From contig DASTLR010000003.1 of NCBI GenBank assembly GCA_035714745.1, positions 161-64,160 of the forward strand: 64,000 nucleotides of DNA. The letters are read 5' to 3'. Below are positions 1 to 41,251 of the stretch, one piece after another. The stretch comes from Minisyncoccota bacterium. Its GTDB lineage: Bacteria > Patescibacteriota > Minisyncoccia > Phycocordibacterales > UBA6065. Below the pieces are notes generated by a model. That model did no database searches, was not told the DNA's origin, and saw nothing but the letters and a program-made list of their open reading frames with translations. How positions within the stretch are numbered: position 1 is the first letter of the stretch; the number at the start of each line of letters is the position of its first letter. The position numbers and the translations under genes are program-made.

Positions 1-3000
1 TTAACCTCTTCTGTTGGAGATGGTATCCGAATAAAGGGTACGGGGAGCAATTCACCGAGTGTCCTCCTGACTGGTCCTAGCGGAGACAATGGTGCAATTG
101 GACTTGCTCTGGGCTCCAATCATTTTGTTACAGGATCAGCAGCAAACGATCTTGTGATACGAGCTAATGCAGGCAAGATGCATTTTGCATATAGCGACGC
201 TGCTATAGGTATGACGTTGAATACGAACGGCAACGTCGGCGTCGGGACCTCGACGCCTACGAGCAAGCTCTCTGTCGAAGGCGACTTCACAAGCTCTGGC
301 ACGCAGGCCTTCGAGATGACACGCACGGGCGTAGCGAGGACGGCTGCTCGCTTCAGCATATCGAACGCGACGAACTCGGCGGGCGTATTCCTGCCGGTGT
401 TCACGGGCGTCTCAAACTACGACAGCAGCGGAACCGCGATAGGCATGTACTTCACTGGCCAGCCGGTCGCTGACAACAGCTCTGACGACGTCGCTCTGAG
501 GTTCGACGGCCGCACGCAGTCCGCGACCGCCATGACCACTGGCGCCATCGCGGAGTTCACCAACCTCAACACGCCTCTCCTGAGGATCATGGCGAGCGGG
601 AAGATAGGTATCGGCACCACTTCGCCTTCTCAGTTGCTCTCCGTCCAAGGAAATGGCCTATTCTCAGGAAACCTGTTTGTCGGCGGTTCAATTACCTCGA
701 CCAGTACTCTCTATATAAACAAAACAAGCGCGGCATCGACCAGAGAGTCTCTCGGGAAGCTTTCCGTCTCGGACGCGGGCAATGACGCGTTCTATTTCGG
801 CAACGGCACGTCGGCCGACGGGTCATATTCCCCGAGCTTCTCGGCCTATGTCGACTCGAGCCTCGGCGGTCTCGTCCTTGACGGCATTACTTCGAGCGCG
901 AAGGATAACGCGGCGAACGCCCTTGTGACGGTAAGGGGCATGATCACGAACAACGCCTCGGACCCATTGAACGGAAGCCTGTCTAACCCGACGACGCGAG
1001 GCATCTTTATGGTGACGAACAAGGACGCCTTCGGGACCAGCCCATACTTCTATGTGGGGGCGGCTGGCAACGTCGGCATCGGGACGACGAGTCCGGTTGC
1101 GCCTTTGTCAATCGAAAGAAACGGAAGCAGTGCGGTAATTTCTCTTAGAGACACTTACGATTCGACAAGTCGGGAATACAGATTTGGGTCAATAACCGCT
1201 GGTTCTCCTTTAGGTAATCAAGGTGATTTCACCTTTAGTGAATATAATTCGGGTTCGTTTGTCGGAACAAGACTGGTTATCCAAAAAACGACCGGCAACG
1301 TCGGCATCGGCACTACGTCGCCGTATGCAAGGCTCGCCGTGGCGGGACAGACCGTTTCCGCGTACTTCACCGCCACGACGACGACAGCCTCGACCTTCCC
1401 GTACGCCTCGTCTACCGCCTCGACCTTTACCACCGGCTACTCGTCGAAGATATACGCTCCGATCATCACGGCGGCGGATTCTGGCAATACTAATTTGAAC
1501 CTCAGGAGCAATGGCAACGGCTCTATCATCTTCGCTTCGGGCGACGGCAACACCGAGATGGGCAGGTTCCTGGGCTCGAACAACAGCTTCGGCGTCGGCA
1601 CCTCGTCGCCGTCCGCAAAGCTGTCGATCACAAGCTCCGGCACCGGCACGGGCAGGGCGTTCGTTGTGGCGAACTCCTCGAACGCCGAGAAGTTCACCAT
1701 CCTCGACAACGGCAACGTCGGCATCGGCTCGACCTCGCCGTTCGCGAAGCTCTCCGTAGTGGGAGGGGGTCAAGTCATCTACGGCGGCTCGATCGACCTC
1801 GCTACGACCACTCCGACGATCTGCTCGAGCGTGAGCCGAGTATACGTATACGGCAAGACGCTCTATCAGGGATCGGGCGACAACTGCCCAAGCCTGCTCG
1901 CCGCTATCGACGTATCCAATCCGCGGGCGCCGCGCACGAACGGCTACATCACGAGCGTCGGCGCCGGGGGACCTGTGGCGGTGGCGGGCAAATACGCATA
2001 TACCATCGGCTCGGATTTCTCGGTCATCGACGTCTCGAATCCCTCGACCCCTCTCCTTGTCGGCAAGATCCCGTTCCTGGGCATCTTTACAGGCGCCTCG
2101 GACAGCCGCGCCATAGGTATCTCCGGCAGGTATGTCTATATCGCTCGCGGGGACTCGGGTTTCGTCATCGTCGACGTCGCGGATCCCGCGAATCCTAGCG
2201 TGGCCGGTTCGTATGATACGCCGGGGAGCGCCAAAAGCGTCGACGTGAAGGGCAAGTATCTCTATGTGGCAGACGACACGTCCGGTCTCGAGATATTCGA
2301 CGTCTCTGATCCTACCTCTCCTCTCCTTGTCGGGTCCTATAACACGAGCGGCAACTCGCTGGCTGTGAAAGTGCAGGACCGCTACGCGTACGTGGCAGAC
2401 AGCGGGGGACAGCTTGCCGTGATCGACGTCTCTAATCCGGCCTCGCCCGCTCTCATGACGACCGGCGGATATCAGGGCTATTCCGTTTACGACGTCCAGC
2501 TCTCGGGCAAGTACGCCTTCATAGCGACAGGCGGCGGGATCGCCATGATGGATATCAGCGACCCTGCGAGCATCGTCTCGGTCGCCGTAGAGACGCTGAC
2601 CGGAGCCAATATCAGCCAGATATCAGTTTCAGGCAATTACGTTTATGGTTCGGATTCGAGTCACAACACCATCTATATCTTTAGCACCGGCGGCCTCGAC
2701 GTGCCTTCGCTTCAGGCTGGTTCCGCGGAAGTAAGCTCGCTCATCTCGAGGGGGGACATTTTGGGCGATGGGAATCTGTTCATATCGGGGGCGTTCAGCG
2801 CAGGCATAGCGGGCATCCATTCTCGCGGCACGATATCTGCATACGTCGCCACGACCACGGGCAATCCGGTCGCCGCCACGTTCATGGGAGGCAAGGTGGG
2901 CGTCGGCACGACCTCGCCCGCGTCGCTCTTTACCGTCATGGGCGGCGGGGCCTGCTTCTCGGGCAGCTCTGCGACTCTGGCCTGCGGCAACGCGGCCGGC

Positions 3001-4620
3001 AACCTGTACTACCGCACGGCTAACACGGGAACCTACGACGTGGCCGAGAACTACGCCGCTTCGGACGCGTCGATCGAGGCCGCCGACATCGTAGCCTTGG
3101 ACGAGGCGAACCCTCTGCGCATCGTCAAGGCTACCCGCGGCTCGCACATCCTGGGCGCCATCTCGACCGATCCCGGACTGGTCCTGGGAGGAGCCGACGC
3201 TACGGCAGACGCTTCGTCTACCCGCCCTGTGGCCCTGTCGGGCCGCGTGCCGGTCAAGGTCAACGGCGAGGCGGGCAACATAGCCATCGGCGACAAGATC
3301 TCGATCTCGTCTACCGCAGGCGTGGGCAAGAAGGCCGTCGGCTCCGAGGAATCCATCGGCGTGGCCCTGGAGGCATGGACGGGCACGGCCCTGGACCAGG
3401 GCATCGTCAAGGTCTTTGTGACCGCCAAGCAGCAGGTCGACCAGGACAAGTTCACCGTCATGGGCTCGGGCAACGTCGGCATCGGCACCACCTCGCCGGA
3501 CTACAAGCTGCAGGTCGCGGGAGACATCGCGGCCACCGCTTTCGTCAACGTCTCGACCCGCGCCGCCAAAAAGGATATCGCCTATGTCGACGACGCCGCG
3601 CGCGCATCGATGTTCGCCAAGCTGCGCACCGTCGGCGTCGCGACCTACCGCTACAACGAGGAGAGCGAGAACCAGCCGCTGCGCATGGGCCTCATCGCCG
3701 AGGAGGCTCCTGCCGAGGTGCTCGCCGACACTGGCAAGGGCGTCGACGTCTACAAGCTCTCGACCTTCATCCTGGCTGGCGTCCAGGAGATGGCGGCCAG
3801 GATGGACGCGCTGGACGGCCGCGTCAAGCGCAATGCCGACGACATCGCTTCGCTCCAGGCCTCGCTCGCCGACACGGTCGCCCAATTGACCGACCTGCGG
3901 GCCCAGGTGGCGGCAGGCCAGCTCGCCGCGGCTTCTGCTTCGACCAGCGCCACGACGGCGAGCACGACCGTCACCTGGTCCGACGGCTTTGGGGCGTCGG
4001 TCCTGGCCTTCTTCCAGACCATCGGTCTGAAGCTCGAGAACGGCATCGCCTATATCGCCAACGCCGTCGTCGAGACGTTCAGCGCCAATATCGCATATAT
4101 CAAGAGCGCGACGATCGAGTCGGCCTCGGTCGAGGCTCTGACCGTCGGTTCGGCCGAGAAGCGCTCGGGCATCACCCTCTACGACGAGCTGACCGGCCAG
4201 CCATATTGTTTGACCATCGCCGGCGGCCAGACGAAGAACGCGGCAGGGGAGTGCCCAAGGATCACCGCCTCGTCGACCGCGCCGATGGCTGCTCCGGCGC
4301 CGGGAGTCTCGGGCAGCTTCGTGTCGCCGGCGAGCGACGCGGCCGCGGCGGGCGCTCCGCAGGCCGTCCAGCCGTCCTCGACGAACGAGGGCACGACCAC
4401 GGTCAGCGTGGAGCCGGCGCCAGCGCCTATAGCGGCTCCGGTCCAGGAGGCGCCCGTGGCGACGTCGACCGCGCCTGCAGCGGACCAGCCTGCGGCCACC
4501 TCCACCCCTGCCGCGGCGGTGACGGCGGCGACCTCCACGCCGGCAGACTCGTCGCCGGTGACGGTCACGGCCGAGACGGCCGCATCGTCTTCGCCAGAGC
4601 TCGGCATGGCGGCTCAGTAG
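1..4620 (+). CDS. Giant cell-surface protein, 5' partial. It has about 8 tail-fibre-type Gly-rich repeats (GNVGIGTTSPxAKLSV), about 7 LVIVD beta-propeller repeats (xVIDVSNPxxP), a C-terminal peptidase-S74-like intramolecular chaperone autoprocessing domain, and an Ala/Pro/Thr/Ser-rich tail.
   Basis: Frame 1 is open from nt 1, so the start lies upstream of the window. The tail-fibre motif recurs at aa ~30, 150, 300, 375, 470, 520, 920 and 1105. The LVIVD-type repeats are AAIDVSNPRAP, SVIDVSNPSTP, VIVDVADPANP, EIFDVSDPTSP, AVIDVSNPASP and MMDISDPASI. The S74 domain reads STRAAKKDIAYVDD...YRYNEESENQPLRMGLIAEEAPAEV. The tail is a low-complexity APTS stretch of ~170 aa. Confidence 0.8.
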   Translation, partial: LTSSVGDGIRIKGTGSNSPSVLLTGPSGDNGAIGLALGSNHFVTGSAANDLVIRANAGKMHFAYSDAAIGMTLNTNGNVGVGTSTPTSKLSVEGDFTSSGTQAFEMTRTGVARTAARFSISNATNSAGVFLPVFTGVSNYDSSGTAIGMYFTGQPVADNSSDDVALRFDGRTQSATAMTTGAIAEFTNLNTPLLRIMASGKIGIGTTSPSQLLSVQGNGLFSGNLFVGGSITSTSTLYINKTSAASTRESLGKLSVSDAGNDAFYFGNGTSADGSYSPSFSAYVDSSLGGLVLDGITSSAKDNAANALVTVRGMITNNASDPLNGSLSNPTTRGIFMVTNKDAFGTSPYFYVGAAGNVGIGTTSPVAPLSIERNGSSAVISLRDTYDSTSREYRFGSITAGSPLGNQGDFTFSEYNSGSFVGTRLVIQKTTGNVGIGTTSPYARLAVAGQTVSAYFTATTTTASTFPYASSTASTFTTGYSSKIYAPIITAADSGNTNLNLRSNGNGSIIFASGDGNTEMGRFLGSNNSFGVGTSSPSAKLSITSSGTGTGRAFVVANSSNAEKFTILDNGNVGIGSTSPFAKLSVVGGGQVIYGGSIDLATTTPTICSSVSRVYVYGKTLYQGSGDNCPSLLAAIDVSNPRAPRTNGYITSVGAGGPVAVAGKYAYTIGSDFSVIDVSNPSTPLLVGKIPFLGIFTGASDSRAIGISGRYVYIARGDSGFVIVDVADPANPSVAGSYDTPGSAKSVDVKGKYLYVADDTSGLEIFDVSDPTSPLLVGSYNTSGNSLAVKVQDRYAYVADSGGQLAVIDVSNPASPALMTTGGYQGYSVYDVQLSGKYAFIATGGGIAMMDISDPASIVSVAVETLTGANISQISVSGNYVYGSDSSHNTIYIFSTGGLDVPSLQAGSAEVSSLISRGDILGDGNLFISGAFSAGIAGIHSRGTISAYVATTTGNPVAATFMGGKVGVGTTSPASLFTVMGGGACFSGSSATLACGNAAGNLYYRTANTGTYDVAENYAASDASIEAADIVALDEANPLRIVKATRGSHILGAISTDPGLVLGGADATADASSTRPVALSGRVPVKVNGEAGNIAIGDKISISSTAGVGKKAVGSEESIGVALEAWTGTALDQGIVKVFVTAKQQVDQDKFTVMGSGNVGIGTTSPDYKLQVAGDIAATAFVNVSTRAAKKDIAYVDDAARASMFAKLRTVGVATYRYNEESENQPLRMGLIAEEAPAEVLADTGKGVDVYKLSTFILAGVQEMAARMDALDGRVKRNADDIASLQASLADTVAQLTDLRAQVAAGQLAAASASTSATTASTTVTWSDGFGASVLAFFQTIGLKLENGIAYIANAVVETFSANIAYIKSATIESASVEALTVGSAEKRSGITLYDELTGQPYCLTIAGGQTKNAAGECPRITASSTAPMAAPAPGVSGSFVSPASDAAAAGAPQAVQPSSTNEGTTTVSVEPAPAPIAAPVQEAPVATSTAPAADQPAATSTPAAAVTAATSTPADSSPVTVTAETAASSSPELGMAAQ

Positions 4621-4648: not shown

Positions 4649-5683
4649 ATGTTCGCAAAGAAAAAGATACGAGTAGCGATAAACGGCTTCGGCAGGATCG
4701 GCAGGGCGTTCCTGAAGGTGGCCCGCGAGAGGGACGAGATCGAGGTGGTGGCGGTCAACGACCTGGGCGATATCAACAATATGGCCTATCTTTTGCGATA
4801 CGACACCGTCTATCGCGCCGCGTCGTTCCCGGTCGAGGCGGTCGAGGGCAGCGACCCATATCTCCTGGTTGACGGCAGGAAAGTGCTCTTCGTCAGCCAA
4901 AAGGACCCGGCGCAATTGCCGTGGAAGAAGCTGAATATCGACGTGGTGGTGGAGTCGACGGGGCTTTTCACAGCTTTCGAAAAGGCCAAAGTGCATCTGG
5001 ACGCGGGCGCTCGCCGCGTTGTTATCAGCGCTCCGGCTAAGGGTGACGGAAGCTTCCAGGGCGAGACCGTGCTCATGGGCGTGAATGAGGACAGGCTCAA
5101 GGCCTGCGCCGTCAGCTCGAACGCCTCGTGCACGACGAACGCCGGGTCGCCGCTTCTCGCCATCCTCGACGAGGCCATCGGCATCGAAAAGGCCGTGCTC
5201 AATACCGTCCACGGCTACACGGCCAGCCAGGGCATCGTCGACGGGCCGAACAAGAAGGATTGGCGCGAGGGCAGGGCGGCGGCCATGAACATCGTGCCGT
5301 CATCGACCGGCGCGGCCATCGCCACGACAAAGGCCCTGACGCAATTGACCGGCAAATTCGACGGCATCTCCATCCGCGTGCCGGTGGTTGCCGGCTCGAT
5401 CGCCGACATTACCTTTATCGCCAAGCGCGACACTACCGCCGAGGAGGTCAACCTGGCCCTCAAGCGAGCCGCGAGGAGCGAGCGCTGGAAGGGCATATTC
5501 GCCGCCACCGAGGAGGAGCTGGTCTCGAGCGACATCCTGGGCGAGTCGCATGCCTCTATCGCCGACCTCAAGATGACGCGCGTGGTCGGGGGCAATCTGG
5601 TGAAGGTGTTGGCGTGGTATGACAACGAGATGGGGTATACGCATACCTTGGTCGATCACGTCATAAAAGCTGGGCAGGTTTAA
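4649..5683 (+). CDS. gap: Glyceraldehyde-3-phosphate dehydrogenase, type I
   Basis: The N-terminal Rossmann motif is KIRVAINGFGRIGR. The active-site signature is SNASCTTN. Full length is 344 aa. Confidence 0.95.
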   Translation: MFAKKKIRVAINGFGRIGRAFLKVARERDEIEVVAVNDLGDINNMAYLLRYDTVYRAASFPVEAVEGSDPYLLVDGRKVLFVSQKDPAQLPWKKLNIDVVVESTGLFTAFEKAKVHLDAGARRVVISAPAKGDGSFQGETVLMGVNEDRLKACAVSSNASCTTNAGSPLLAILDEAIGIEKAVLNTVHGYTASQGIVDGPNKKDWREGRAAAMNIVPSSTGAAIATTKALTQLTGKFDGISIRVPVVAGSIADITFIAKRDTTAEEVNLALKRAARSERWKGIFAATEEELVSSDILGESHASIADLKMTRVVGGNLVKVLAWYDNEMGYTHTLVDHVIKAGQV

Positions 5684-6822: not shown

Positions 6823-7541
6823 ATGATAGAGATCACTCCAGCTATATTGCCAGAATCGTACCGCGAGCTCGTCGACAAGCTCGATATCGCCGCCGGCCAC
6901 GCCCGGGCCGTACAGGTCGACATCTGCGACGGCGGCTATGTGCCGAGCAGGACATGGCCGTACCTGAAGGGGCCCAACGCCGAAGATATGATCTTTGAAG
7001 AGATCAAAAGCCAGGAGCAGGCCCTGCCGCACTGGGACATCGTCGACTTCGAGTTCGACCTGATGGTCCGCGACGCGCATGCGAAGATCCCCGACTTCAT
7101 CGCCGTGGGCGCGAGCCGTATCGTCGTCCACCAGGCCAGCATGATGAGGGCGAGCTCGAGAGCGTCGTGCGCGACTACGGCAGACAGTCTGACGATCTGG
7201 GCCCCTTTGACGTCGAGCTGGGCGTCGCCCTTTTGCCGACCGACGACCCCGAAGCCGTAGCGGCGTCGATCGCGCCAGTGGCTGCCGGCATCCACTTCGT
7301 CCAGGTCATGGGCATCCAGAATATCGGCTACCAGGGCCAGGATTTCGACCCTCGGGCCGTGGAGCTGGTCCGCGCCCTCCGCGCGGCCTATCCCGACATG
7401 CCGATCGCCGTCGACGGGGGAGTGGACGTGGATAACGGTCGCGAGCTGGTCAACGCCGGGGCCACTCGATTGGTCGTCGGCTCGGCTCTCTTCGAGAGCG
7501 TCGACTTCGCCGGCACCCTCAAGGAATTCCAAGCATTGTGA
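6823..7541 (+). pseudogene. rpe: Ribulose-phosphate 3-epimerase interrupted by an apparent frameshift near nt ~7140 (a true pseudogene or a sequencing/assembly error)
   Basis: The N-terminal half is in frame 1 (IEITPAILPES...VDICDGGYVP...IVVHQAS). The C-terminal half is in frame 3 (HDEGELESVV...IHFVQVMGIQNIGYQGQDF...IAVDGGVD...GSALF). The two halves are collinear with full-length Rpe. The junction ...cag gcc agc at gat gag ggc... lacks 1 nt. Confidence 0.7.
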
Positions 7542-8452
7542 TCGAACCCTCTACGCGCATGTCACTCACCCAAGAACAGATAAAGAGCATAGAGAGCAAG
7601 GCGAACGACATCCGCCAGTCCATTATCTCTATGCTCGTCGAGGCCGGCTCGGGACACACCGCCGGGCCGCTCGGCATGGCGGACGTATTCGCAACCCTCT
7701 ATTTCGCTGGCCCGCAATCGGGCCTCAGGCACGACCCGCTGCGCCCTGATTGGCCGGAGCGCGACCGCCTGGTCCTTTCGAACGGCCACATCGCCCCGGT
7801 GCTCTATGCGACCATGGCCCATGCAGGCTATTTCCCGGTGGAGGAGCTGCGCACCCTGCGCAAGTTCGGCTCGCGCCTGCAGGGACACCCGCATCGGGAC
7901 TTCTTGCCCATGCTCGAGACCTCGTCCGGACCGCTGGGCAGCGGCTTGTCCCAGGCTGTGGGCATGGCTCTGGCAGATCGCATCGATCATGGGGGCGCCG
8001 TGGCGGGCAAATCGTCGCCGCGCCGCATCTACTGCCTGATGTCCGACGGAGAGCATGACGAAGGCAATACCTGGGAAGCGATTCTCCTGGCCGGCAGGGA
8101 GAAGCTGAACAACCTGGTCGCCGTCATCGACAGGAACAATATCCAGATCGACGGCTATACCGAGGACGTCATGCCTCTCGAGCCCTTTGCCGACAAATAC
8201 CTGACCTTTAACTGGCACGTCATCGAGGTCGATGGCAACGACGTCCGCGAGATCGCGGCCGCCTTTGAGACCGCAAAGACCATCTTCGAGAAGCCGGTGG
8301 TCGTCATCGCTCACACCATTCCCGGCAGGGGCGTGGCCGAATTCGAGCGCAAATACGAATGGCACGGCAAGGCGCCGAGCAGGGAAGAGGGGCGGATGGC
8401 CTTGAAAGAGCTGCGGACCCTCGGCGGCAAGATCCGCAGCGAACACGAATAA
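7538..8452 (+). CDS. tkt: Transketolase, N-terminal (thiamine-diphosphate-binding) subunit of a split transketolase
   Basis: The TPP-binding motif is GHTAGPLGMADVFATLYF. Length is 304 aa. It directly precedes the C-terminal subunit. Confidence 0.9.
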   Translation: MIEPSTRMSLTQEQIKSIESKANDIRQSIISMLVEAGSGHTAGPLGMADVFATLYFAGPQSGLRHDPLRPDWPERDRLVLSNGHIAPVLYATMAHAGYFPVEELRTLRKFGSRLQGHPHRDFLPMLETSSGPLGSGLSQAVGMALADRIDHGGAVAGKSSPRRIYCLMSDGEHDEGNTWEAILLAGREKLNNLVAVIDRNNIQIDGYTEDVMPLEPFADKYLTFNWHVIEVDGNDVREIAAAFETAKTIFEKPVVVIAHTIPGRGVAEFERKYEWHGKAPSREEGRMALKELRTLGGKIRSEHE

Positions 8453-8458
8453 CGAGCT

Positions 8459-9475
8459 ATGATCGTACCATCACAAAAACTCAATCCAAAGCTCTTCGAC
8501 AAGGATATCGAAGAGGTGCCGATCCGCAAGGGCTTCGGCCAGGGATTGCTCGCGGCGGGGGAGCGCGACCAGAGGGTCGTCGGACTCTGCGCCGACCTCA
8601 CTGAGTCGACGCAGATGCACCTCTTCAGGGAGAAATTCCCTGAGAGGTTCGTCGAGATCGGCGTGGCCGAGCAGAACCTGGTGACGGTGGCCTCCGGCAT
8701 GGCGGCCATGGGCAAGATACCGTTCGTCAGCTCGTACGCCATGTTCTCTCCGGGCAGGAATTGGGAGCAGATCCGCACGACCATCGCCTATAACGGCCAG
8801 CCGGTCGTCATCGTCGGCTCGCACGCCGGCGTCTCCGTCGGCCCTGACGGCGGCACCCATCAGGCCACCGAGGATATCGCCCTCATGCGGTCTATGCCGA
8901 ACATGGTCGTGGTCTCGCCCTGCGACGCTATCGAGGCGAGAAAGGCCACGTTGGCCCTGGCAGAGCTGGCCCGAAAGGAGGGTAAGCCCTCCTATATGCG
9001 CCTTATACGCGATAAAACGCCCGTTATGACCACGGAAGCCACGCCGTTCGAGCTCGGCAAGGCCCGGGTCTTTTTCGAGCCTATAGCGGGTTCTCCCGAG
9101 GTCGCCATCATCGCCACCGGGGCCCTGGTGCACAAGGCTCTGACGGCTGCCCGCGAGCTCGAAAAGGAAAAGATAGGCGTCACGGTCCTGAACCTGGCCA
9201 CCATAAAGCCTCTCGACGAATCGGCCATCGTCCGCGCGGCCAAAGCCGCCGGGGCCGTCGTCACCGTCGAGGAGCACCAGGTCATGGGCGGCATGGGCTC
9301 GGCCGTGGCAGAGCTGCTGGCCGCCAAGCATCCGACGCCGATCGAATTCATCGGCGTCCAGGACCGCTTCGGCCAGTCGGGCACTCCCGAGGAGCTCGTC
9401 GAGCGCTACGGCATGGGGGTCAGGGATATCAAGGAGGCGGCGCTTCGGGTGTTAAAGAGAAAAAGGGAAAGATAG
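8459..9475 (+). CDS. tkt: Transketolase, C-terminal (pyrimidine-binding and C-terminal domain) subunit
   Basis: Contains FVEIGVAEQNLVTVASGMAAMGKIPFVSSYAMF and GSHAGVSVGPDGGTHQATEDIA. Length is 338 aa. Confidence 0.9.
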   Translation: MIVPSQKLNPKLFDKDIEEVPIRKGFGQGLLAAGERDQRVVGLCADLTESTQMHLFREKFPERFVEIGVAEQNLVTVASGMAAMGKIPFVSSYAMFSPGRNWEQIRTTIAYNGQPVVIVGSHAGVSVGPDGGTHQATEDIALMRSMPNMVVVSPCDAIEARKATLALAELARKEGKPSYMRLIRDKTPVMTTEATPFELGKARVFFEPIAGSPEVAIIATGALVHKALTAARELEKEKIGVTVLNLATIKPLDESAIVRAAKAAGAVVTVEEHQVMGGMGSAVAELLAAKHPTPIEFIGVQDRFGQSGTPEELVERYGMGVRDIKEAALRVLKRKRER

Positions 9476-9477
9476 AG

Positions 9478-9578
9478 AACGAAGATCACTCCGGACACTC
9501 AGAGCACAAAAGAACACCAGAAGGGGATTCCCTCTGGTGTTCTTTTGTGATCCCCGTGTTCCCTGGTGATCTTCGTTT
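9478..9578. repeat. Copy A of a ~100-nt nested-palindromic intergenic repeat. Its inner hairpin acts as a bidirectional intrinsic terminator between the convergent tkt and recR genes.
   Basis: The outer stem is AACGAAGATCAC paired with GTGATCTTCGTT. The inner stem is 14-17 bp: AAAAGAACACCAGAAGG paired with CCTCTGGTGTTCTTTT. A T-run follows on both strands. About 75 nt are near-identical to 16423-16493. Confidence 0.8.
9508..9546. terminator. Bidirectional rho-independent terminator (inner hairpin of repeat copy A)
   Basis: Perfect 14-bp stem, an 11-nt loop that can pair further, and TTTTGTG downstream on both strands. Confidence 0.8.
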
Positions 9579-9581
9579 CCC

Positions 9582-16399: not shown

Positions 16400-16493
16400 A
16401 CACGAAGATCACTAAAGAATACAAAAGAACACCAGAGGGGAATCTCCTCTGGTGTTCTTTTGTGATCCCCGTGTTCCCTGGTGATCTTCGTGT
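16400..16493. repeat. Copy B of the nested-palindromic intergenic repeat. Its inner hairpin is a bidirectional terminator between the convergent rplI and rpmA genes.
   Basis: The outer stem is ACACGAAGATCAC paired with GTGATCTTCGTGT, a compensatory change relative to copy A. The inner stem is AAAAGAACACCAGAGG paired with CCTCTGGTGTTCTTTT. The 3' ~75 nt are near-identical to copy A. Confidence 0.8.
16423..16461. terminator. Bidirectional rho-independent terminator (inner hairpin of repeat copy B)
   Basis: 15-16-bp stem followed by TTTTGTG. Confidence 0.8.
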
Positions 16494-16508
16494 CCTTCCG
16501 TATCCTCC

Positions 16509-18057: not shown

Positions 18058-19035
18058 CTACTTGCCGTCCCTGATGTCCTTGCCGCCATGGAATTTCTCG
18101 TGGATGTCGCGCAGGCGCTTGTTGGTGACGTGGGTGTAGACCTGGGTGGTCGAGACGTTCTTGTGGCCCAGGAGCTCCTGGACGCTGCGCAGGTCCGCGC
18201 CGCGGGAGAGGAGGTCGGTGGCATAGGTGTGGCGCAGGGTATGGGGCGTGACGCGCTTCGAGATGCCGGCCACCAGGGCGCAGCGCGAGATCATCAGCTG
18301 GATGTAGCGATTGGTCAGCCGGTTGTGGTCCGGATCCTTCGAACGATGGTTGATGAAGAGGGGCTTGGACATGTCCTTGCGCGCGGCCAGGTATCTGCGC
18401 ACCCATTCGGCGGCGTGAGGGGAGATGAAGATGGTGCGGATATGCTTGCCCTTGCCGACGATCGAGAGCTCGTAGGTGCGGTCCTTGGACTTGTCCCGGA
18501 GTATGGACATCTGGTCGGCGTTCAAGGCCGCCAATTCCGAGATGCGCATCCCCGAGGAAAAGAACAGCTCCATGATGGCCCGGTCGCGCAGGCCCGAGTC
18601 GGTCTTGGTATCCGGCACGTCGAGCATCTTCTGGATATCGGACACTTCCAGAAAGGAGATCGTCTCCTCGCTCTTCTGCTTGGCCAGCTTGATCTTTGAG
18701 GAGGGCAGGGACTCGATATCCCGGTCGGCTAGGAAGGCCAAGAGAGCCCGGAGGGCGATCAGGTAGTAGTTCTGGGACTTCTTGCTCAGGTATTCGCCGC
18801 CGGGGGTCTTGTACTCGCGGGCCATGTACAGGCGGTAGTCCCATATGTGCTCGGCGGTCAGCTCGTGCGGCTTCAGGCGCTCCTGGCCGGTCTCTTTGAG
18901 CCAGCGGACGAAGAGGGAGAGATACTGATTGTAATTCCTCTGCGTGTTGTTCGACAACCCTTTCTCGATCTCGCAGTAGTCCAGGAACGGCAGGACGTAG
19001 TCCTTGAGGGGAGTGGAGCTTTGCTTGGCTTTCAT
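18058..19035 (-). CDS. xerC: Tyrosine recombinase XerC/XerD
   Basis: An N-terminal SAM-like domain is present. The catalytic residues are ...R...HTLRHTYATDLLSRGADLRSVQELLGH...Y, and the C-terminal tyrosine is in TQVYTHV. Length is 325 aa. Confidence 0.9.
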   Translation of the reverse strand: MKAKQSSTPLKDYVLPFLDYCEIEKGLSNNTQRNYNQYLSLFVRWLKETGQERLKPHELTAEHIWDYRLYMAREYKTPGGEYLSKKSQNYYLIALRALLAFLADRDIESLPSSKIKLAKQKSEETISFLEVSDIQKMLDVPDTKTDSGLRDRAIMELFFSSGMRISELAALNADQMSILRDKSKDRTYELSIVGKGKHIRTIFISPHAAEWVRRYLAARKDMSKPLFINHRSKDPDHNRLTNRYIQLMISRCALVAGISKRVTPHTLRHTYATDLLSRGADLRSVQELLGHKNVSTTQVYTHVTNKRLRDIHEKFHGGKDIRDGK

Positions 19036-27425: not shown

Positions 27426-28730
27426 TTATGGGACGAGGCGTGTGGGACCGCGATACAGGTAGGTAACCTCACGGACATTCTTGCGATCCAGGAGGATCAT
27501 CAGAAGCCGCGTCAGGCCGAGGCCGAATCCGCCATGCGGAGGGCATCCGTAGCGGAAGAAGTCGATGTAGTGCTTGATCGACTCAAGGGGGATTCCCTTC
27601 TCGGCCGCTTGCGCCGACAGGACGTCGACGCGATGCTCGCGCTGGGCGCCGGTGGTCACTTCCAGGCCGTGCCAGAGGAGATCGAAGCTCTTGGTGAGCG
27701 TTGGGTCATCCTCATGGCGACGGTGATAGAAGGGTCGCACCTCGACTGGATAGTCCGTCACGAACACGAACTCGTGGCCAGTCTTCTCCTTGATGTATTC
27801 GGCGAGCATGCGCTCACCGGGTGGGTCGAGGTCTTCCTTGTGGGCGATCGCGTGGCCGCGCTCGGCCAGGATGGCCCGGGCTTCGGCGAGCGGGATACGC
27901 GGGAACGGCAGCATCGGAACGACGACGTCGATCCCGGTGAGCCGCTTTATCTCGTCTCCGCATTCCTTCTGGACGTAGCCGAGCGCGTAAGCGATCAGGC
28001 GCTCTTCGAGCGCCATCACGTCTTCGTGCGACTCGATCCAGGACATCTCCACGTCGACGGAGGTGAACTCCGTGTCGTGGCGGGCTGTGAACGAAGGATT
28101 AGCGCGGAAGACCGGGCCGATCTCGAAGATACGGTCGAGCCCTGCTGCCATCGCCATCTGCTTGTAGAACTGCGGCGATTGGGCGAGCGTGGCTTTGCCG
28201 CCGAAGTAGTCGAGCTGGAACAGCTCGGCCCCTGATTCGCTTGCCGTGCCCATGAGCTTCGGCGAGTGGATCTCCATGAAGCCGTTCTGCAGCCAGAACT
28301 GCCGCATCCCCTGCTCCAGAGCTGTCTGGACCTTGAAGATGAGGGTGTTCTCGGGACGGCGGATGCTAAGCGCCCGCCAGTCGAGCTGGAGGTCGAGACC
28401 GGATTCGGCTGTGATCGGGAGCAATTGCTCCGCGGGGCCGACATCCTCGATCGAATCGAGCACGATCTCCACGCCCCCGAGCTTAGCGCTCGGATTGGCG
28501 ACGACCTTGCCCGAGGCGATGATGGCGGATTCCTGCGTCAGCGCGCTGATAGCAGCGCCGAGCGGGTCTCCTTCCTTCTTCTCGTGGCAGAGCTGGATCA
28601 TGCCGGTATGGTCCCGGAGGACCACGAACTGCATGCGCTTCTGGTCGCGGATCGCGTGTGCGAAACCCGCAACTGTGACGATCGAGCCCGAGAGCGCTGA
28701 CACATCCCTGGTCAATGTTCGATTAATCAT
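27426..28730 (-). CDS. aspS: Aspartyl-tRNA synthetase, archaeal/short type (possibly non-discriminating)
   Basis: An N-terminal OB fold is followed by a class II core with motifs 1-3 (FRANPSFTARHDTEFT, QSPQFYKQ, FFRYGCPPHGGFGLGLTRL). The probable start is the ATG at 28730 (MINRTL...); the track ORF extends to 28805. Confidence 0.85.
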   Translation of the reverse strand: MINRTLTRDVSALSGSIVTVAGFAHAIRDQKRMQFVVLRDHTGMIQLCHEKKEGDPLGAAISALTQESAIIASGKVVANPSAKLGGVEIVLDSIEDVGPAEQLLPITAESGLDLQLDWRALSIRRPENTLIFKVQTALEQGMRQFWLQNGFMEIHSPKLMGTASESGAELFQLDYFGGKATLAQSPQFYKQMAMAAGLDRIFEIGPVFRANPSFTARHDTEFTSVDVEMSWIESHEDVMALEERLIAYALGYVQKECGDEIKRLTGIDVVVPMLPFPRIPLAEARAILAERGHAIAHKEDLDPPGERMLAEYIKEKTGHEFVFVTDYPVEVRPFYHRRHEDDPTLTKSFDLLWHGLEVTTGAQREHRVDVLSAQAAEKGIPLESIKHYIDFFRYGCPPHGGFGLGLTRLLMILLDRKNVREVTYLYRGPTRLVP

Positions 28731-28749
28731 GATTTGCCTTGCTTTATTT

Positions 28750-30069
28750 TTACGGCGAGATTTTACGCCGGAAAATGCGTGGGAACGGAATGGCGTCGCG
28801 CACATGCGGGATGTTGAGCATCCAGCGGATCATGCGTTCGACCCCCATGCCGAAAGCCGCGTGAGGAACGCAGCCGAGTTGGTGGACGTCACGGACGAAT
28901 TCGAAGCGCGGATCACCATGCTTGCCCTTATCCTTGAGCCGCTCGTCGAGTTCGCGGAGTTGATGGATTTTCTCGGCGGTGCCGAGGAGCTCGCCGTAGC
29001 CATTGCTCGCGATCAGGTCGGCGACGCGAGTGATTCGCGTGTCGGCCGGATCGATGCAATACGGGAACGGTTCGATAGTCCGGGGTATCCCAGTGATCCA
29101 GAACGGGCGACCAGGAAAGAGCTTGGAGAGCAAGGTTTCCTCTTCGGAGCCGAGGCTCTTGCCAAACTCATGTTGCATGCCGAGCGACGAAAGGTGCTTG
29201 ACCGCCTCTTCGTAGCTGATGCGGGGATATGGAACGGACATGCCGTCGGTGCAGAGCGTCGTGCCGAGCACCTGGAGCTCTTCCGAGAGCTCCTTCTGGC
29301 ATTTCTTGGTGAGGAAACAGATGATGTCCTCAACCATCTTGATGATGCAGTCGAGGTCGCACCAAGCCACCTCGGCCTTGATATGCCAGTATTCCATGAG
29401 GTGCCGTTTGCTGCGGCCCTCTTCCCCGCGGAAGCTCGGTCCCATATTGTAGACGCGCTCGAAGGCGTGGACCGCCGCTTCGAGGTAGTATCCGACGCAT
29501 TGCGTCAAGAATACATCCTCGTCATGGACGGTCAGCTTCATGGCCGTGCCGTCTTCGTAGAGCGGCACCGGCGTGAGTATCGGCGCGTCGATCGATGTGA
29601 ACCGGTTGTCTCGGAACCACTGCCGCATGTGATGCATCAGGCTGTCCCGATATTTCAAGATGGCCATTACCTTCGGGTTGCGGAGGTAGATATGGCGGTT
29701 GGCGAGCAGATGGGGCGTCATGCCTTCTGCGAAGATGTCGAAGTCGGAGCGCGGGTGCGGATCGAATCCGCGGGTGACCCCGCCGACGAGCGTGATGTCA
29801 TGCGCGGCGATTTCGAGGCGGCCTTTAGGCGTCCTCGAAACGACTCCTTTGACGACGATGCCTGATTCGACAGGGATATCCCTGGCGATCTCAGACGCTC
29901 CGTTCGAGCCATGCTCGGCGGAGACGACGACTTGGATCTTGCCCGTGCTGTCGGACACATCCAAGAACGTGATGCGGCCCTGGTCCCGCTTGGAGGAGAC
30001 CCAGCCTGACAAGTCGACCTGGTCTCCGGGTTGAGCCCGGAGGAGGTCGGCTACGAATACAGTCTTCAT
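28750..30069 (-). CDS. asnS: Asparaginyl-tRNA synthetase
   Basis: Class II motifs are MGPSFRGEEGRSKRHLMEYWHIKAEVAW and GCVPHAAFGMGVERMIRW. An N-terminal OB fold is present. Length is 439 aa. Confidence 0.8.
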   Translation of the reverse strand: MKTVFVADLLRAQPGDQVDLSGWVSSKRDQGRITFLDVSDSTGKIQVVVSAEHGSNGASEIARDIPVESGIVVKGVVSRTPKGRLEIAAHDITLVGGVTRGFDPHPRSDFDIFAEGMTPHLLANRHIYLRNPKVMAILKYRDSLMHHMRQWFRDNRFTSIDAPILTPVPLYEDGTAMKLTVHDEDVFLTQCVGYYLEAAVHAFERVYNMGPSFRGEEGRSKRHLMEYWHIKAEVAWCDLDCIIKMVEDIICFLTKKCQKELSEELQVLGTTLCTDGMSVPYPRISYEEAVKHLSSLGMQHEFGKSLGSEEETLLSKLFPGRPFWITGIPRTIEPFPYCIDPADTRITRVADLIASNGYGELLGTAEKIHQLRELDERLKDKGKHGDPRFEFVRDVHQLGCVPHAAFGMGVERMIRWMLNIPHVRDAIPFPRIFRRKISP

Positions 30070-30176: not shown

Positions 30177-31236
30177 TTAGAATTCGATGGATATGGTTCG
30201 GGCGGCCGGGTCGATTCGCACCTTTCTACCATACGGTATGGGTATCTGAGGATGTGTGTGCCCAAAATCAAGATTTTGTATTACTGGCGCCTTTGGATTG
30301 TATCGACGGAATTCTGCGAGCACATGTTCCCGCTGTTCGCGCCTGTAAGCAGCTTTAGCAGATGACCCTTTCGGGTCCGAAAAGTTCCACGCTTTTGGAC
30401 GGCCCACAAGGAGGCCTTTGGCAGCTCCTAAGATTTTCTTTCTTCCGAGCTTCCTTAGTATCGAAGCGACTTTTCGAGCAGATGGCACTTCTTCTGAGGT
30501 CTCAATGAGCAGAACCGCGTCCTTGAATTGATCAAGTGTCGGCATATCATTTCCCGAATCAAGCATTGCATTGATTGACTCAAGACAACCACCCCATGTT
30601 ATTCCCTCCACTATCAAGTCTCCGTCCCAGAACCAACCCTCATTTGGTTCGAAACATCGCTCCTGCTTAAGCGACTCTGGATTACTCCAGTCGACGTCGA
30701 CATCAGAGTATACGCTACTCGACATGAGGTCCACCCGGCCCTTCCTGAAGAGCGCCTGATTGATAAAACGATCTGTGAACTTATCAGGTCCTTCCTTGTG
30801 GGCGAATTGGGTGAAGAGTGCCGCGCCGTAATACGAAGGCACGCCAAGGAGCCAGAGGAAACTCATGAAATGGGTATTGTCGCTGAAGCCAAAAAAAGGC
30901 TTAGGGTTTAATGCGAACGGTTTCCGAGGCAAGAGCTTCATATATGTTGCCTGATCATCGCCACCAAGAGTGGTCACTACCCCTTTGATTTCCGAGTCAG
31001 AGAAGGCTGCAACTAGATCATTGATACGCTCGTCGACTGACGCGCCGAGTTTTCCTGTTGAGGGATATTCTACGGGGATAAGCCCGAGCTTACGGATTTG
31101 CTTCAAGCCAAGCTCATATACATGAGGCCACTTCCCCGGCGCGGCAAATGAAGGTGATAATATTGCCACCTTGTCACCTCTTTGGAGTTTTCGGAGTCTC
31201 TTGAATCTCACAAGATAATCATACGATATAAACATA
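30177..31236 (-). CDS. LD-carboxypeptidase, peptidase family S66 (LdcA/MccF family), in a low-GC island
   Basis: GDKVAILSPSF marks the family's N-terminal conserved segment, and the nucleophile Ser is in GFSDNTHF. The ATG at 31236 (MFISYDYLV...) sits just after a perfect terminator. The longer track ORF to 31490 reads through that terminator. Confidence 0.8.
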
Positions 31237-31258
31237 AAAAGGGCGCCGTAAGGCGCCC
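31236..31258 (-). terminator. Rho-independent terminator after the amidohydrolase gene
   Basis: On the minus strand the sequence is GGGCGCC-UUAC-GGCGCCC followed by UUUUUAUGUUU. Confidence 0.75.
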
Positions 31259-31263
31259 ATCTC

Positions 31264-32298
31264 TCAAAACCCAAAAAAAGCTTCGGCGTTCTTGCGAAAG
31301 ATCCGTTGCTTTGCCTGGTCTCGCATCTCGAGAGGCAAACTCTCGATAGCATTCCGAAGAGCGGTAAGGCAGAGCCAATGGCTATGCTCAGCCCCTTTAG
31401 CCAAGTGTCCATAGACCTTGTGCTCTTCCGGATCGGTCCAATGATACTGATACGATGTGACGATCCGCTGGCCCTTTTCCGGGTGAACATAGGGCCGCGA
31501 CCTGATTAGGTTAAGAGGTTCGTCGCTCCCATACATGATACGGCTGATACCGAAAGATTCGATAGCGAGCTTCATAACCTCTTCCGACGGGTTAAGCGAT
31601 GTATCCATGCTCACGTTCGGAGCTTCAGCGATTCGGCGATAGGCTTCGGCTAAGCCAGATACAACGAATTTCGTCGAACCGAGGTGGGCGATTGATATTC
31701 GTAAGGCTGGGAAATCCGTAACGACCTTCATCAGATCATCCTGGCTTTCCACAATCATCCGGGGTAGATGAAGGATAATCGGGATACCAAATCGCTCAGC
31801 CGCCACAAGGATCTCTGGAGGAAAACATTGATAGATCTCTTTGGCTGTTGGCTCGACATACGAATAATACATTTTGAGTGCCGAAACACGTGGGTGGAGC
31901 AACATCCGAATCGTATACTCGGGATCCTCTGGCAGGCCAAATAAGGCGACCCGATCATTTGGCGGGCTATCAGAGAGCAGATACTGGTTCACTTTGCGAT
32001 GGTCTATGCCCCGGAAAGTTTTAGCGAATCGGAGCGACCTGATCGATTTACCAGGGTGAAAAACCTCTCTTACCTTTTCCGACTCCTCGATCGAAAAGCA
32101 AGGGAAAGTCGAGAGCATATGACGAAAGGTCTTTTCGCCCATATCTCGGATATGCTCAGGAAGTGTTGCATGGGCATGACAATCGACGATATCGCTTGGC
32201 AGCCAACGAGTGAATGACTCGATGGATGTTTTCTCTCGGTCAGAGAGCGCCATGGCATGCGCGAGATACGCATCTCTGTTTATAGTTGTTGCGAGCAT
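31264..32298 (-). CDS. Metal-dependent amidohydrolase (amidohydrolase-2/TIM-barrel hydrolase family)
   Basis: 344 aa. The N-terminal metal-binding motif is IVDCHAH, and later segments are ISIAHLG and MYGSDEP. GC is ~45%. Confidence 0.6.
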   Translation of the reverse strand: MLATTINRDAYLAHAMALSDREKTSIESFTRWLPSDIVDCHAHATLPEHIRDMGEKTFRHMLSTFPCFSIEESEKVREVFHPGKSIRSLRFAKTFRGIDHRKVNQYLLSDSPPNDRVALFGLPEDPEYTIRMLLHPRVSALKMYYSYVEPTAKEIYQCFPPEILVAAERFGIPIILHLPRMIVESQDDLMKVVTDFPALRISIAHLGSTKFVVSGLAEAYRRIAEAPNVSMDTSLNPSEEVMKLAIESFGISRIMYGSDEPLNLIRSRPYVHPEKGQRIVTSYQYHWTDPEEHKVYGHLAKGAEHSHWLCLTALRNAIESLPLEMRDQAKQRIFRKNAEAFFGF

Positions 32299-37185: not shown

Positions 37186-37842
37186 TTATTTGATCTCGAT
37201 CCAATTCCCTTCGCTGACGACCTCGACCTTTTCGTCTGCAACTTTGATGGCTGAAGCATCGTCGAGAGCGTACGTCTTTCGTCCGGTTCCCTCTACGGCT
37301 TTACGGATATTCTTCTCTCGCAACAGCGGGAACCATTTGGAATCGAGGTGAGGCAGCACATAAAAATCTACGAAACCAAGGCCCGGCATGTCTTCCTTTC
37401 GATCAAAGTCTTCTTCATAGACGATTTGAGATATCTTGAGCGACAGGTCGGGATTAGTGACCATGGTGCCCGCGCTGATGCCAGCATAGAGACGCGTCTC
37501 GAGCAATCGCGGCAATTCCGCGGCAAGGCCTGATTTATTCAACCATTCCATAAGGTGATAAGTATTGCCGCCGCCGACAAAGATCACGTCGGCCGCTTCC
37601 AATCGCGGCAGCCACTGCTTTTTCTCGAGCGCTGATATGTCTACGATATCGACAGACTTAAGGCCGAGCCTCTGTATCTGCGCCAGATTGTCGAGAAGCC
37701 ACCCTTTGTCGCCTGGCTCGACGTTCGCTGCCGTGGGTATGAAAGCAAGCGAAATCCGGCTCGCTTTCTTTCCTGCGAGCTCGAAAAAAGCCCCTTCTAT
37801 AGCCTTATTCGTTATTCCTGCCGATGTAAGAAGTAATTTCAT
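37186..37842 (-). CDS. Peptidase E (S51 family dipeptidase/cyanophycinase-like)
   Basis: The protein begins MKLLLTSAG and contains VGGGNT and the catalytic Ser region AGISAGT. Length is 218 aa. Confidence 0.75.
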   Translation of the reverse strand: MKLLLTSAGITNKAIEGAFFELAGKKASRISLAFIPTAANVEPGDKGWLLDNLAQIQRLGLKSVDIVDISALEKKQWLPRLEAADVIFVGGGNTYHLMEWLNKSGLAAELPRLLETRLYAGISAGTMVTNPDLSLKISQIVYEEDFDRKEDMPGLGFVDFYVLPHLDSKWFPLLREKNIRKAVEGTGRKTYALDDASAIKVADEKVEVVSEGNWIEIK

Positions 37843-41111: not shown

Positions 41112-41179
41112 TGTATTGTACCAAAATAAAAAACCACTTATCCCGAAGGAAGAGTGGTGAGAAAGCGCGGGGGCGCGAT

Positions 41180-41251
41180 GGGACTCGAACCCACAACCGT
41201 AGGTTCCACAAACCTGCGCTCTACCATTGAGCTACGCGCCCACACTGCAAA
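41180..41251 (-). tRNA. tRNA-His (anticodon GTG). Canonical cloverleaf with C73 discriminator, but the genomic -1 position is T, not G.
   Basis: The sequence is GGGCGCGTAGCTCAATGGTAGAGCGCAGGTTTGTGGAACCTACGGTTGTGGGTTCGAGTCCCATCGCGCCCC. The acceptor stem is 7/7. The D stem is GCTC/GAGC. The anticodon loop is TTGTGGA. The T loop is TTCGAGT. CCA is not encoded. The 5' flank is ...GTGT. Confidence 0.85.

Follow-up and report, generated by a model that had tools for sequence, protein, structure and literature searches.

A 64,000-nucleotide stretch of a Minisyncoccota genome (GenBank assembly GCA_035714745.1, contig DASTLR010000003.1, positions 161 to 64,160 of the forward strand; hereafter the window) opens inside a giant open reading frame (ORF) that resembles a bacteriophage tail fibre and is followed by the housekeeping gene gap, which raises the question of whether this ORF belongs to a phage or to the cell, and of what its product would do. 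The ORF is, in our assessment, likely to encode an N-terminally anchored, phage-tail-fibre-like trimeric fibre of the cell surface, which would carry self-cleaving C-terminal folding modules and serve in attachment to a partner cell.

A Giant Gene Cut Off at Its 5' End

The fibre ORF occupies frame 1 of the + strand and is open from the first base of the window to a TAG codon at 4618-4620, and it most likely encodes the last 1539 residues of a far longer protein, the gene of which lies on the chromosome of a Parcubacteria bacterium (Patescibacteria, also referred to as candidate phyla radiation, CPR).

1..4620, + strand: 3' part of the giant fibre gene (open frame 1, 1539 codons plus TAG; 5' end outside the window)

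An earlier note, made from the sequence of the window, had described a 5' truncated protein of more than 1500 amino acids (aa), and this description holds. The same fibre gene was found on an 85.9-kb metagenome scaffold of the European Nucleotide Archive (L001) and on a Logan contig (L002), which reach 74 nt and 49 nt, respectively, beyond the first base of the window, and the additional bases encode, in frame, a further GNVGIGTTSP unit (SGNVGIGTTSPDLKLSI). Since the frame is still open at the ends of both contigs, inside another repeat of this type (cap repeat, see below), the gene is truly truncated. The upstream N-terminus, signal peptide or anchor that the earlier note had proposed to look for was not recovered, as all public contigs found stop short in the five places with an identical gap gene that were checked. 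The window most likely holds the 3' two-thirds of the gene, or less; the lengths of relatives cited for the total gene size range from 2,000 to 7,900 aa. A database gene call of 1469 aa is an artefact that starts at an internal ATG. A core of ~20 nt (GGCAACGTCGGCATCGGCAC) is repeated throughout the fibre gene and probably explains the assembly breaks inside it. Contigs from five samples carry an identical fibre gene, so that no strain variation is seen between samples, and the five public places are 100% identical to the window, with the sole exception of a 1-nt difference at 7144.

A Tail-Fibre-Like Shaft With an In-Line Propeller

The N-terminal part of the available sequence consists of a repetitive shaft, in which a conserved cap motif closes each repeat:

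1..1794, + strand: fibre shaft (aa 1-598) of beta-helix-type repeats rich in Gly/Ser/Thr, with a cap motif at the end of each (matches to phrog_9942 and 8OND)
229..276, + strand: cap motif 1, GNVGVGTSTPTSKLSV (aa 77; motif scan)
598..645, + strand: cap motif 2, GKIGIGTTSPSQLLSV (aa 200; motif scan)
1066..1113, + strand: cap motif 3, GNVGIGTTSPVAPLSI (aa 356; motif scan)
1294..1341, + strand: cap motif 4, GNVGIGTTSPYARLAV (aa 432; motif scan)
1585..1629, + strand: cap motif 5, degenerate, SFGVGTSSPSAKLSI (aa 529; translation)
1711..1758, + strand: cap motif 6, GNVGIGSTSPFAKLSV (aa 571; motif scan), immediately N-terminal to the propeller
2890..2937, + strand: cap motif 7, GKVGVGTTSPASLFTV (aa 964; motif scan), in the post-propeller return segment

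Together with an eighth motif further downstream (aa 1157), seven strict copies (aa 77, 200, 356, 432, 571, 964, and 1157) and one degenerate copy are present, in agreement with the eight GNVGIGTTSP copies counted previously. A degenerate DNA pattern for the motif has seven matches in the fibre gene, compared with a mean of 0.00 over 100 shuffles. In a scan of the window, the motif is confined to the fibre gene and fibre paralogs are absent; the lone other match of the DNA pattern, at 27901, is weak, at the maximum of three mismatches. Residues 259-543 match the PHROG tail-fibre family phrog_9942 (E 3.9e-21), which confirms the suspected tail-fibre repeats at the level of profiles. Among solved structures, the best sequence match is Bd2133 (PDB 8OND, E 9e-6), which aligns on the cap repeats at aa 69-223 and 326-484, and a profile of the protein family finds the structures of the mosaic adhesive trimeric (MAT) fibres of Bdellovibrio (8OND, E 7e-9; 8OJN, E 2.6e-7; 8OL4, E 3.3e-6; 8OML, E 6.5e-6).

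The shaft leads into a beta-propeller, which is followed by a return segment:

1795..2685, + strand: seven-bladed LVIVD beta-propeller, aa ~599-895 (Pfam LVIVD, AlphaFold2, Foldseek)
2686..3036, + strand: post-propeller return segment, aa 896-1012, with the pair Cys985/Cys995 and the last residue Y1012 (conserved after the propeller in homologs)

Pfam PF08309 (LVIVD) matches in five stretches with 174 bits (cutoff 20.2; E 3e-52). Six blades of the type xxIDVSNPxxP are clear (aa 635-849) and a seventh is degenerate, and an AlphaFold2 (AF2) model of aa 570-1012, built from an alignment of 19 sequences, contains 28 strands arranged as seven four-stranded blades (predicted local distance difference test, pLDDT, 85-97), so that the estimate of about seven blades in the earlier note proved accurate. 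The propeller behaves as a cassette, both here and in relatives, with a cap motif before it and the conserved return segment and another cap motif after it. The first description of LVIVD repeats concerned cell-surface proteins of archaea, for which a beta-propeller was predicted (PMC2447325). The surface proteins of archaea and bacteria with these repeats share the repeat family with the fibre (PF08309, E 3e-52), whereas the propeller here is inserted between fibre cap motifs, in a protein of the trimeric-fibre type.

A propeller in such a position could be taken as an enzyme, with the fibre acting chiefly as its carrier, in the manner of a tailspike depolymerase, and with the propeller or the shaft degrading an envelope polymer of the partner. 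Many phage proteins capped by an S74 domain (see below) are depolymerases, for example endosialidases (PMC4690869), propeller folds include hydrolases, with the propeller phosphotriesterase 5hrm among the Foldseek matches, and CPR bacteria must scavenge from their hosts. However, the propeller matches generic seven-bladed or WD40-like scaffolds (E about 1e-12, 9-15% identity) and shows no catalytic signature, and no enzyme family was detected by Pfam or NCBIfam. The structurally characterised tips of MAT fibres are binding domains, and that of Bd2439 binds glycans (PMC10769870). We therefore regard the enzyme-carrier explanation as improbable, and the propeller is discussed below as a candidate binding head of an attachment fibre.

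Two Chaperone-Type Modules and a Two-Cysteine Module

The C-terminal region contains three separable modules, namely A (a G2-like barrel), B (a cap motif and S74) and C (a two-cysteine module), and was modelled with AF2 as aa 944-1440 from an alignment of 25 sequences:

3037..3450, + strand: module A, aa 1013-1150, chaperone-type beta-barrel; putative cleavage motif D1013 (nt 3037-3039) and E1016 (nt 3046-3048)
3469..3552, + strand: cap motif 8 and strand into the S74 site, aa 1157-1184, GNVGIGTTSPDYKLQVAGDIAATAFVNV (motif scan; family profile)
3553..3915, + strand: module B, aa 1185-1305, Peptidase S74; S1185 (nt 3553-3555) and K1190 (nt 3568-3570)
3988..4254, + strand: module C, aa ~1330-1418, two-cysteine module (conservation in relatives, AF2)
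4255..4617, + strand: low-complexity Ala/Pro/Thr/Ser-rich tail, aa 1419-1539 (70% A+P+T+S by composition)

Module A is modelled as a confident beta-barrel (aa ~1013-1143, pLDDT 85-94), the first strand of which begins at D1013 after a low-confidence linker. In a Foldseek search of the PDB it matches 3SUC (E 5e-5) and 3GQH (E 6.6e-5) with a probability of 1.0 and a TM score of 0.59 on the 163-residue 3GQH; both entries represent residues 692-854 of phi29 gp12, the C-terminal auto-chaperone fragment, and the next-ranked matches are phage capsid cement proteins. Among predicted viral structures, 'preneck appendage' proteins are the best matches (E 2.6e-11, 27% identity), and the profile of the module A family finds the gp12 sequence (6QZ9, E 1.5e-4). 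The D-v-A-E-n-Y of the family aligns exactly on D692-F-A-E695 of gp12 and corresponds to D1013 and E1016 here. This alignment is meaningful, because the PDB chain 3GQH begins at D692 and the 'pre-mature' gp12 entry 3SUC reads DFAQ, with Gln replacing the E695 of other gp12 entries. By pattern, D-x-A-E occurs in 59 of the 64 module A instances of fetched relatives, and on inspection also in four of the five exceptions, and nine of 21 module A sequences of relatives match Pfam Peptidase_G2 (PF11962) at E<=0.01 (best 1.1e-5). Module A is homologous to the gp12 domain (Peptidase G2 of MEROPS and Pfam; 3GQH, 3SUC, 6QZ9) and probably works alike: the beta-barrel fold, the D-x-A-E at the first residue of the domain and the location C-terminal to a beta-helix, trimeric in gp12, are shared. 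In contrast to gp12, module A is internal and an S74 cassette follows it; for the gp12 domain, a dependence on ATP is reported.

Module B matches Pfam PF13884 (Peptidase_S74) above the cutoff (24.2 bits vs 22, E 4.3e-5) over aa 1187-1244 and profile positions 3-56 of 58. The S74 mechanism, as described for T5 pb1, uses a Ser and a Lys five residues on (PMC4690869), and this pair is present as S1185-T-R-A-A-K1190. The dyad recurs in 79 of 83 sequence-anchored S74 instances of relatives, mostly as STxxxK and in four cases as SDxxxK. In the AF2 model, the domain is preceded by the cap motif and a strand and includes a long 55-residue helix (aa 1250-1304). The Ser/Lys pair, the preceding beta-helix-type repeat with its cap motif and the long helix modelled after it are common to the S74 fibres and tailspikes of phages (K1F endosialidase, T5 pb1, GA-1 gp12), from which the protein differs by its cellular context, the Thr in place of Asp, the non-terminal position of S74 and an identity of at most 38% over ~115 residues; the tail fibre of Bacillus phage Stahl, found by tblastn, is 37.6% identical over aa 1176-1290 (E 3e-9). 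A match of the family profile to the ICA domain of MyRF (7DC3, E 1.3e-4) spans the junction of cap motif 8 and S74. The MyRF domain is likewise of the S74 type, with the same upstream cap and beta-helix; however, it is cytosolic and its cleavage frees a transcription factor, whereas the domain here is located at the distal end of a fibre that is presumably extracellular.

Module C is located after A or B in relatives and has a conserved core, GITLYDxxTGxPYC...GxC (aa 1388-1418), with Cys1403/Cys1418, in which the G, T and P and both Cys are almost invariant in the family alignment. The core is modelled as a small confident hairpin (pLDDT 75-85), and module C as a whole has no Pfam match. The APTS-rich tail noted before follows as the last 121 codons, without a C-terminal membrane segment in the ORF; among the relatives scanned, a C-terminal hydrophobic segment is absent with one exception. 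The earlier note had placed a single S74-type chaperone module at the C-terminus of the protein, and of this the S74 assignment stands by virtue of the PF13884 score, while the terminal position does not, since helix, two-cysteine module and tail come after it, and the second chaperone-type module (gp12/Peptidase G2 type, aa 1013-1150) had been missed.

A Very Large Mosaic Family in Patescibacteria

A search with the full protein returned 2,024 relatives, and those with a named source are nearly all giant proteins (1.2-2.7 kaa, i.e., thousand aa) of Patescibacteria (Parcubacteria, Paceibacterota, Kaiserbacteria, Taylorbacteria, and others), many of them annotated as 'tail fiber domain-containing'. 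At thresholds of E<=1e-3 and E<=1e-30, an exhaustive hidden Markov model search with a profile of the C-terminal cassette retrieved 141,330 and 7,072 cluster representatives, respectively. The proteins behind the best 150 cassette matches are up to 7,920 aa long, and most of them have the matched module close to their C-terminus. The architecture is hence that of a member of a very large family rather than a one-off. The C-terminal ~480 residues are the best-conserved part of the family (50-66% identity), while shaft and propeller are mosaic. By sequence pattern, the modules are combined in relatives as ABC, AB, BC, AC or A alone, always in the same order, and the propeller together with A, B and C recurs in P0248 (3,788 aa) and P0277 (3,182 aa). 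A polymorphic-toxin reading was rejected, since in this family it is conservation, and not variability, that peaks at the C-terminus. Targeting by a diversity-generating retroelement was dropped as well, as neither a near-identical template/variable repeat pair nor a reverse transcriptase was found among the ORFs scanned.

Relatives with complete N-termini begin in most cases with a signal or membrane anchor, often with an 'NYQGKLT' domain next. Others begin with a weak HTH_17-like (helix-turn-helix) domain and have a membrane segment at about residue 110-250. HTH_17 was not accepted for these N-termini, as the Pfam score is below threshold (19.5 bits vs a cutoff of 27). Of these relatives, P0003, P0017, P0023, P0024, P0027, and P0317 begin with one or two copies of KxAAxxxGYTxDYIGQLxRxGKI, the motif to which the weak HTH_17 match belongs. 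If this is a cytoplasmic DNA-binding domain, its presence on a giant fibre of the surface is odd and faintly echoes MyRF.

The ST-type S74, the long helix, the two-cysteine module and the Pro/Thr-rich tail form a terminal cassette, which is present even behind fibres that apparently have a complete chaperone already. In P0140 (segment aa 253-620), a canonical-looking S74 (SSIRFKENV...GFIAEE) is directly followed by an S74 of the Patescibacteria type (STRDAKKDI...GLIAEEAP) and module C. Pattern counts suggest such an S74-S74 tandem in at least 14 of 240 fetched proteins, and tandem chaperones therefore seem to be a recurring theme and not a peculiarity of the window protein. Since the cassette stands behind what look like complete chaperones (G2-S74 here, an apparent S74-S74 in relatives such as P0140), it may have a role beyond folding, for example in retaining the pro-fibre on the wall up to its release.

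A Cellular Gene at a Conserved Chromosomal Site

The fibre gene is followed on the same strand by a conserved neighbour:

4649..5683, + strand: gap, glyceraldehyde-3-phosphate dehydrogenase (Pfam Gp_dh_N and Gp_dh_C; synteny)

The adjacency to a housekeeping gap, which the earlier note had pointed out, is close: gap starts 28 nt past the fibre stop, and a terminator scan found no terminator-like site in between. After gap, the window continues with a 148-aa ORF (no Pfam match), rpiB, rpe, a split transketolase, recR, dnaB, cysS, corA, and ctpB. Gene content was sampled over the first 15 kb downstream and in 20 further ORFs between 17 and 56 kb, among which aminoacyl-tRNA synthetases, murG, ftsW, a Xer-type recombinase, ABC transporters and glycosyltransferases were found, and no phage structural genes.

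The closest genome match is the 'Candidatus Parcubacteria bacterium' metagenome-assembled genome (MAG) GCA_039796155.1, which is consistent with the earlier suggestion of a reduced-genome, possibly episymbiotic bacterium. Its giant ORF of >3,885 aa (locus L008) lacks the propeller and runs off the locus, and has a cassette that is 66% identical; downstream of it follow LamG-like genes and then gap (73% identical), rpiB (78%), rpe, tktN, and tktC, in the order of the window. In another Parcubacteria assembly (L019), the relative P0011 lies ~6 kb upstream of gap-rpiB (gap 63% identical), with SecA, Obg and GatB upstream, and is composed of a signal peptide, an NYQGKLT domain, a shaft, LVIVD repeats, a canonical SDERLK S74, module C and an acidic tail. 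The MAG GCA_039796155.1 holds a second paralog, P0003, on a different contig among truB, bipA, adk, and ftsJ. Both giant fibre genes of the related Parcubacteria MAG directly precede genes of the LamG/Laminin_G_3 type with a lectin fold (L006, 15740-17803; L008, 12063-16340); the window has no LamG-type gene after the fibre, and gap comes at once.

These observations bear on the explanation that the ORF codes for the tail fibre of a phage or tailocin and belongs to a prophage or phage-derived element, the other genes of which would lie upstream, outside the window. The characterised homologs of the shaft, of S74 and of the G2-like module are indeed phage tail fibres and appendages, the upstream flank is outside the public contigs, both of which end inside the gene, and a tyrosine recombinase gene is present at 18058-19035. 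However, the recombinase stands amid genes for aminoacyl-tRNA synthetases, an M23 peptidase, murG and ftsW, as is the case for chromosomal Xer-type enzymes, no phage structural gene was seen among the downstream ORFs sampled, and relatives hold the same place upstream of gap-rpiB in two assemblies, in one of them with housekeeping genes further upstream. At least two paralogs occur on different contigs of one MAG, and relatives carry N-terminal signals or membrane anchors, which are not expected in a virion fibre. The GC content at third codon positions of the fibre gene (0.77) is near that of six neighbouring genes (0.79-0.92), and the matches to phage records are remote, being confined to domains (27-38% identity, <=33% of the protein covered). 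In IMG/VR, no close relative of the cassette was found in a scan with six exact 8-residue peptide patterns from the window protein, the sensitivity of which is low. We consider a prophage origin very improbable. Housekeeping context, synteny, the base composition at third positions and the remoteness of phage and viral matches indicate a cellular gene at a conserved chromosomal site, the middle of which is swapped between lineages, and the earlier note was right to set it apart from a prophage.

A Proposed Maturation Pathway and Its Weighing

If the ORF encodes a cell-surface fibre, its life could be pictured in five steps. The missing N-terminus would export the protein and hold it at the cell membrane, as suggested by the relatives. 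The C-terminal modules would then fold and trimerise first and template an in-register triple beta-helix shaft toward the N-terminus, for which the K1F endosialidase, T5 pb1, phi29 gp12 and the MAT fibres of Bdellovibrio serve as models. In a third step, the pro-region would cut itself at S1185 by means of Ser1185/Lys1190 (S74 type), probably with a further cut at Y1012|D1013 by means of Asp1013/Glu1016 (phi29 gp12/G2 type), and the predicted fragments would have 17.2 kDa (aa 1013-1184) and 35.6 kDa (aa 1185-1539). The mature trimer would display three seven-bladed LVIVD propellers as a ligand-binding head, which, should the G2-type cut take place, would be separated from the new C-terminus by ~117 residues, and the fibre would finally bind to a molecule on the surface of a host or partner cell.

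The steps differ in how well they can be supported. The putative catalytic residues of the predicted self-cleavage are present and conserved; that both sites are cut is much less certain than the overall explanation. A location at the surface is suggested by the N-terminal hydrophobic segments of relatives and by the cysteines of the ORF, six in number and all in three nearby pairs. The closest cellular counterpart is found in the MAT fibres of Bdellovibrio, which are surface trimers, one tip of which binds prey glycans, and for which S74 cleavage was shown in Bd3182, with S782A as a control (PMC10769870). MAT fibres, such as Bd3182 (S74 type) and Bd2133, are likewise cell-encoded and mosaic and can end in S74, and they share the capping-loop motif of the beta-helix shaft (VG-I-G/N-xxxP-xxxL) in direct sequence matches. 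In contrast to MAT fibres, the window protein comes from another phylum, the envelope of which differs, and is much larger, its propeller is in line in the shaft and not a terminal tip domain, a G2-type module precedes S74, ST replaces SD, and S74 is followed by a helix, the two-cysteine module and the low-complexity tail. The N-terminus of MAT fibres consists of a signal peptide and a conserved domain that is rich in beta structure and ~130 aa long, in place of which the relatives here have NYQGKLT or a weak helix-turn-helix domain and a membrane segment.

Several points weigh against the proposed fibre. The N-terminus is absent here, so that export, anchoring and total length are drawn from relatives only, and trimer formation is likewise predicted by homology. 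In module A, Peptidase_G2 scores below the Pfam cutoff of 25 (14.4 bits with the whole protein and 19 with the module alone), and the module is not treated as a curated family member for this reason; the residue before D1013 is Tyr and variable among relatives, whereas it is Ser in gp12. Matches to phage capsid cement families, which do not cleave, were also obtained with nine of 21 module A sequences, and the fold alone is therefore no proof of proteolysis. In module B, Thr takes the place of the canonical Asp (STxxxK vs SDxxxK), and ~235 residues extend beyond the S74 domain as helix, two-cysteine module and low-complexity tail; no characterised S74 protein is known to have such an extension. 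In P0248, one of the relatives, ~950 residues separate the propeller from the cassette that follows, so that a propeller at the distal tip is not general, and we know of no ligand for any LVIVD propeller.

Some of the same points would suit a permanent structural protein of the envelope or S-layer, in which the chaperone-like modules stay uncleaved and the C-terminal cassette ties the protein to the cell wall. To these belong the occurrence of the module A fold in non-cleaving cement proteins, the departure of ST from the canonical SD, and the 235 residues past S74 with their Pro/Thr/Ala/Ser-rich end, as stretches of this composition often span cell walls. The cassette is, moreover, the best-conserved part of the family, as expected of a part in contact with a cell component that is itself conserved, and archaeal cell-surface proteins were the first in which LVIVD repeats were described (PMC2447325). 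However, the D/E and S/K pairs are almost invariant in relatives, which is not expected of decayed structural domains. An auto-chaperone can be retained, as in the P22 tailspike (PMC3357383), but those S74 and G2 domains that have been characterised to date undergo cleavage. Neither a C-terminal membrane segment nor a known wall-anchor family was detected (Pfam, NCBIfam), and the relatives are anchored at the N-terminus. A permanent, uncleaved envelope protein thus appears unlikely, and an attachment fibre that matures by self-cleavage remains the preferred explanation.

A more specific version of this explanation holds that two mechanistically unrelated self-cleaving modules (the Asp/Glu gp12 type and the Ser/Lys S74 type) act in series, and that the terminal cassette is a Patescibacteria-specific device for assembly or export. 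We put this forward tentatively, as an idea with a minor though real chance of being correct. If true, maturation would proceed in two steps and free a 17-kDa beta-barrel piece and a 36-kDa piece.

Other Features of the Window

Several observations concern the remainder of the window. The 1-nt difference at 7144 lies inside rpe (6823-7541), where the window has one G fewer than L001 and L004 (GCATGGATGAGG in L001 and L004 vs GCATGATGAGG in the window); this deletion splits rpe, which is intact in L001 (239 aa), into ORFs at 6823-7260 and 7167-7541, and may reflect either a mistake in the assembly or consensus or a genuine frameshift variant. Transketolase is encoded by two genes, at 7538-8452 (N-terminal half) and 8459-9475 (pyrimidine-binding and C-terminal half), as in related Parcubacteria loci. 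An 80-nt intergenic element with a strong hairpin (AAAAGAACACCAGAnGGGnATTCCCTCTGGTGTTCTTTT) is present twice, at 9501-9580 and 16416-16495 (91% identity), and could represent a repeated terminator that works in both directions, or else a small mobile repeat.

Two full-length paralogs of histidyl-tRNA synthetase lie 3.5 kb apart (37805-39121 and 41275-42624), with stretches of 73-77% DNA identity, and the second adjoins a tRNA-His (41169-41241); a duplicate synthetase is unexpected in a reduced genome. Genes for class IIb (Asp/Asn/Lys-type) aminoacyl-tRNA synthetases are clustered at 27426-28805, 28750-30069, and 32371-33768, the third of which lies in a low-GC stretch (~49% GC, 30-34 kb) together with LD-carboxypeptidase and amidohydrolase genes and has 71% DNA identity to the first over 300 nt. 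A 95-nt 'tRNA-???' with a two-base anticodon that was called by ARAGORN at 31191-31285 on the - strand has no Rfam support and overlaps two Pfam-matched ORFs, and is probably a false positive. Between ~44000 and 56000, the GC content is 42-48%, compared with about 60% elsewhere, and the genes include a nucleoside hydrolase, GT1 and GT2-NUDIX glycosyltransferases and ORFs without a family; this region may be an acquired surface-polysaccharide island.

Possible Implications for Host Attachment in CPR Bacteria

The building blocks of the protein and its general kind, i.e., cell-encoded, phage-like, S74-capped trimeric fibres, are already known, and relatives are automatically annotated as tail-fibre-domain proteins. 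In the literature searched, a description of this family in CPR bacteria was not found, nor were the in-line LVIVD propeller cassette, the G2-S74 tandem, the conserved terminal cassette and the gap-proximal Parcubacteria locus described. The G2-S74 tandem bears on how very long trimeric fibres fold outside a virion, and experimental handles are offered by the two predicted cleavage sites, the separable propeller head, and the cassette as a search profile. Host recognition by CPR bacteria is largely unknown outside the Saccharibacteria, where type IV pili and unnamed 'adhesins' have been implicated (PMC11665869). The family is present in three Parcubacteria assemblies, those of the window and of two relatives, at a conserved site with swapped middle domains, which is the expected look of a host-range determinant. 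The fibre gene does not overturn expectations; it is a good lead for the attachment of CPR bacteria to their hosts.

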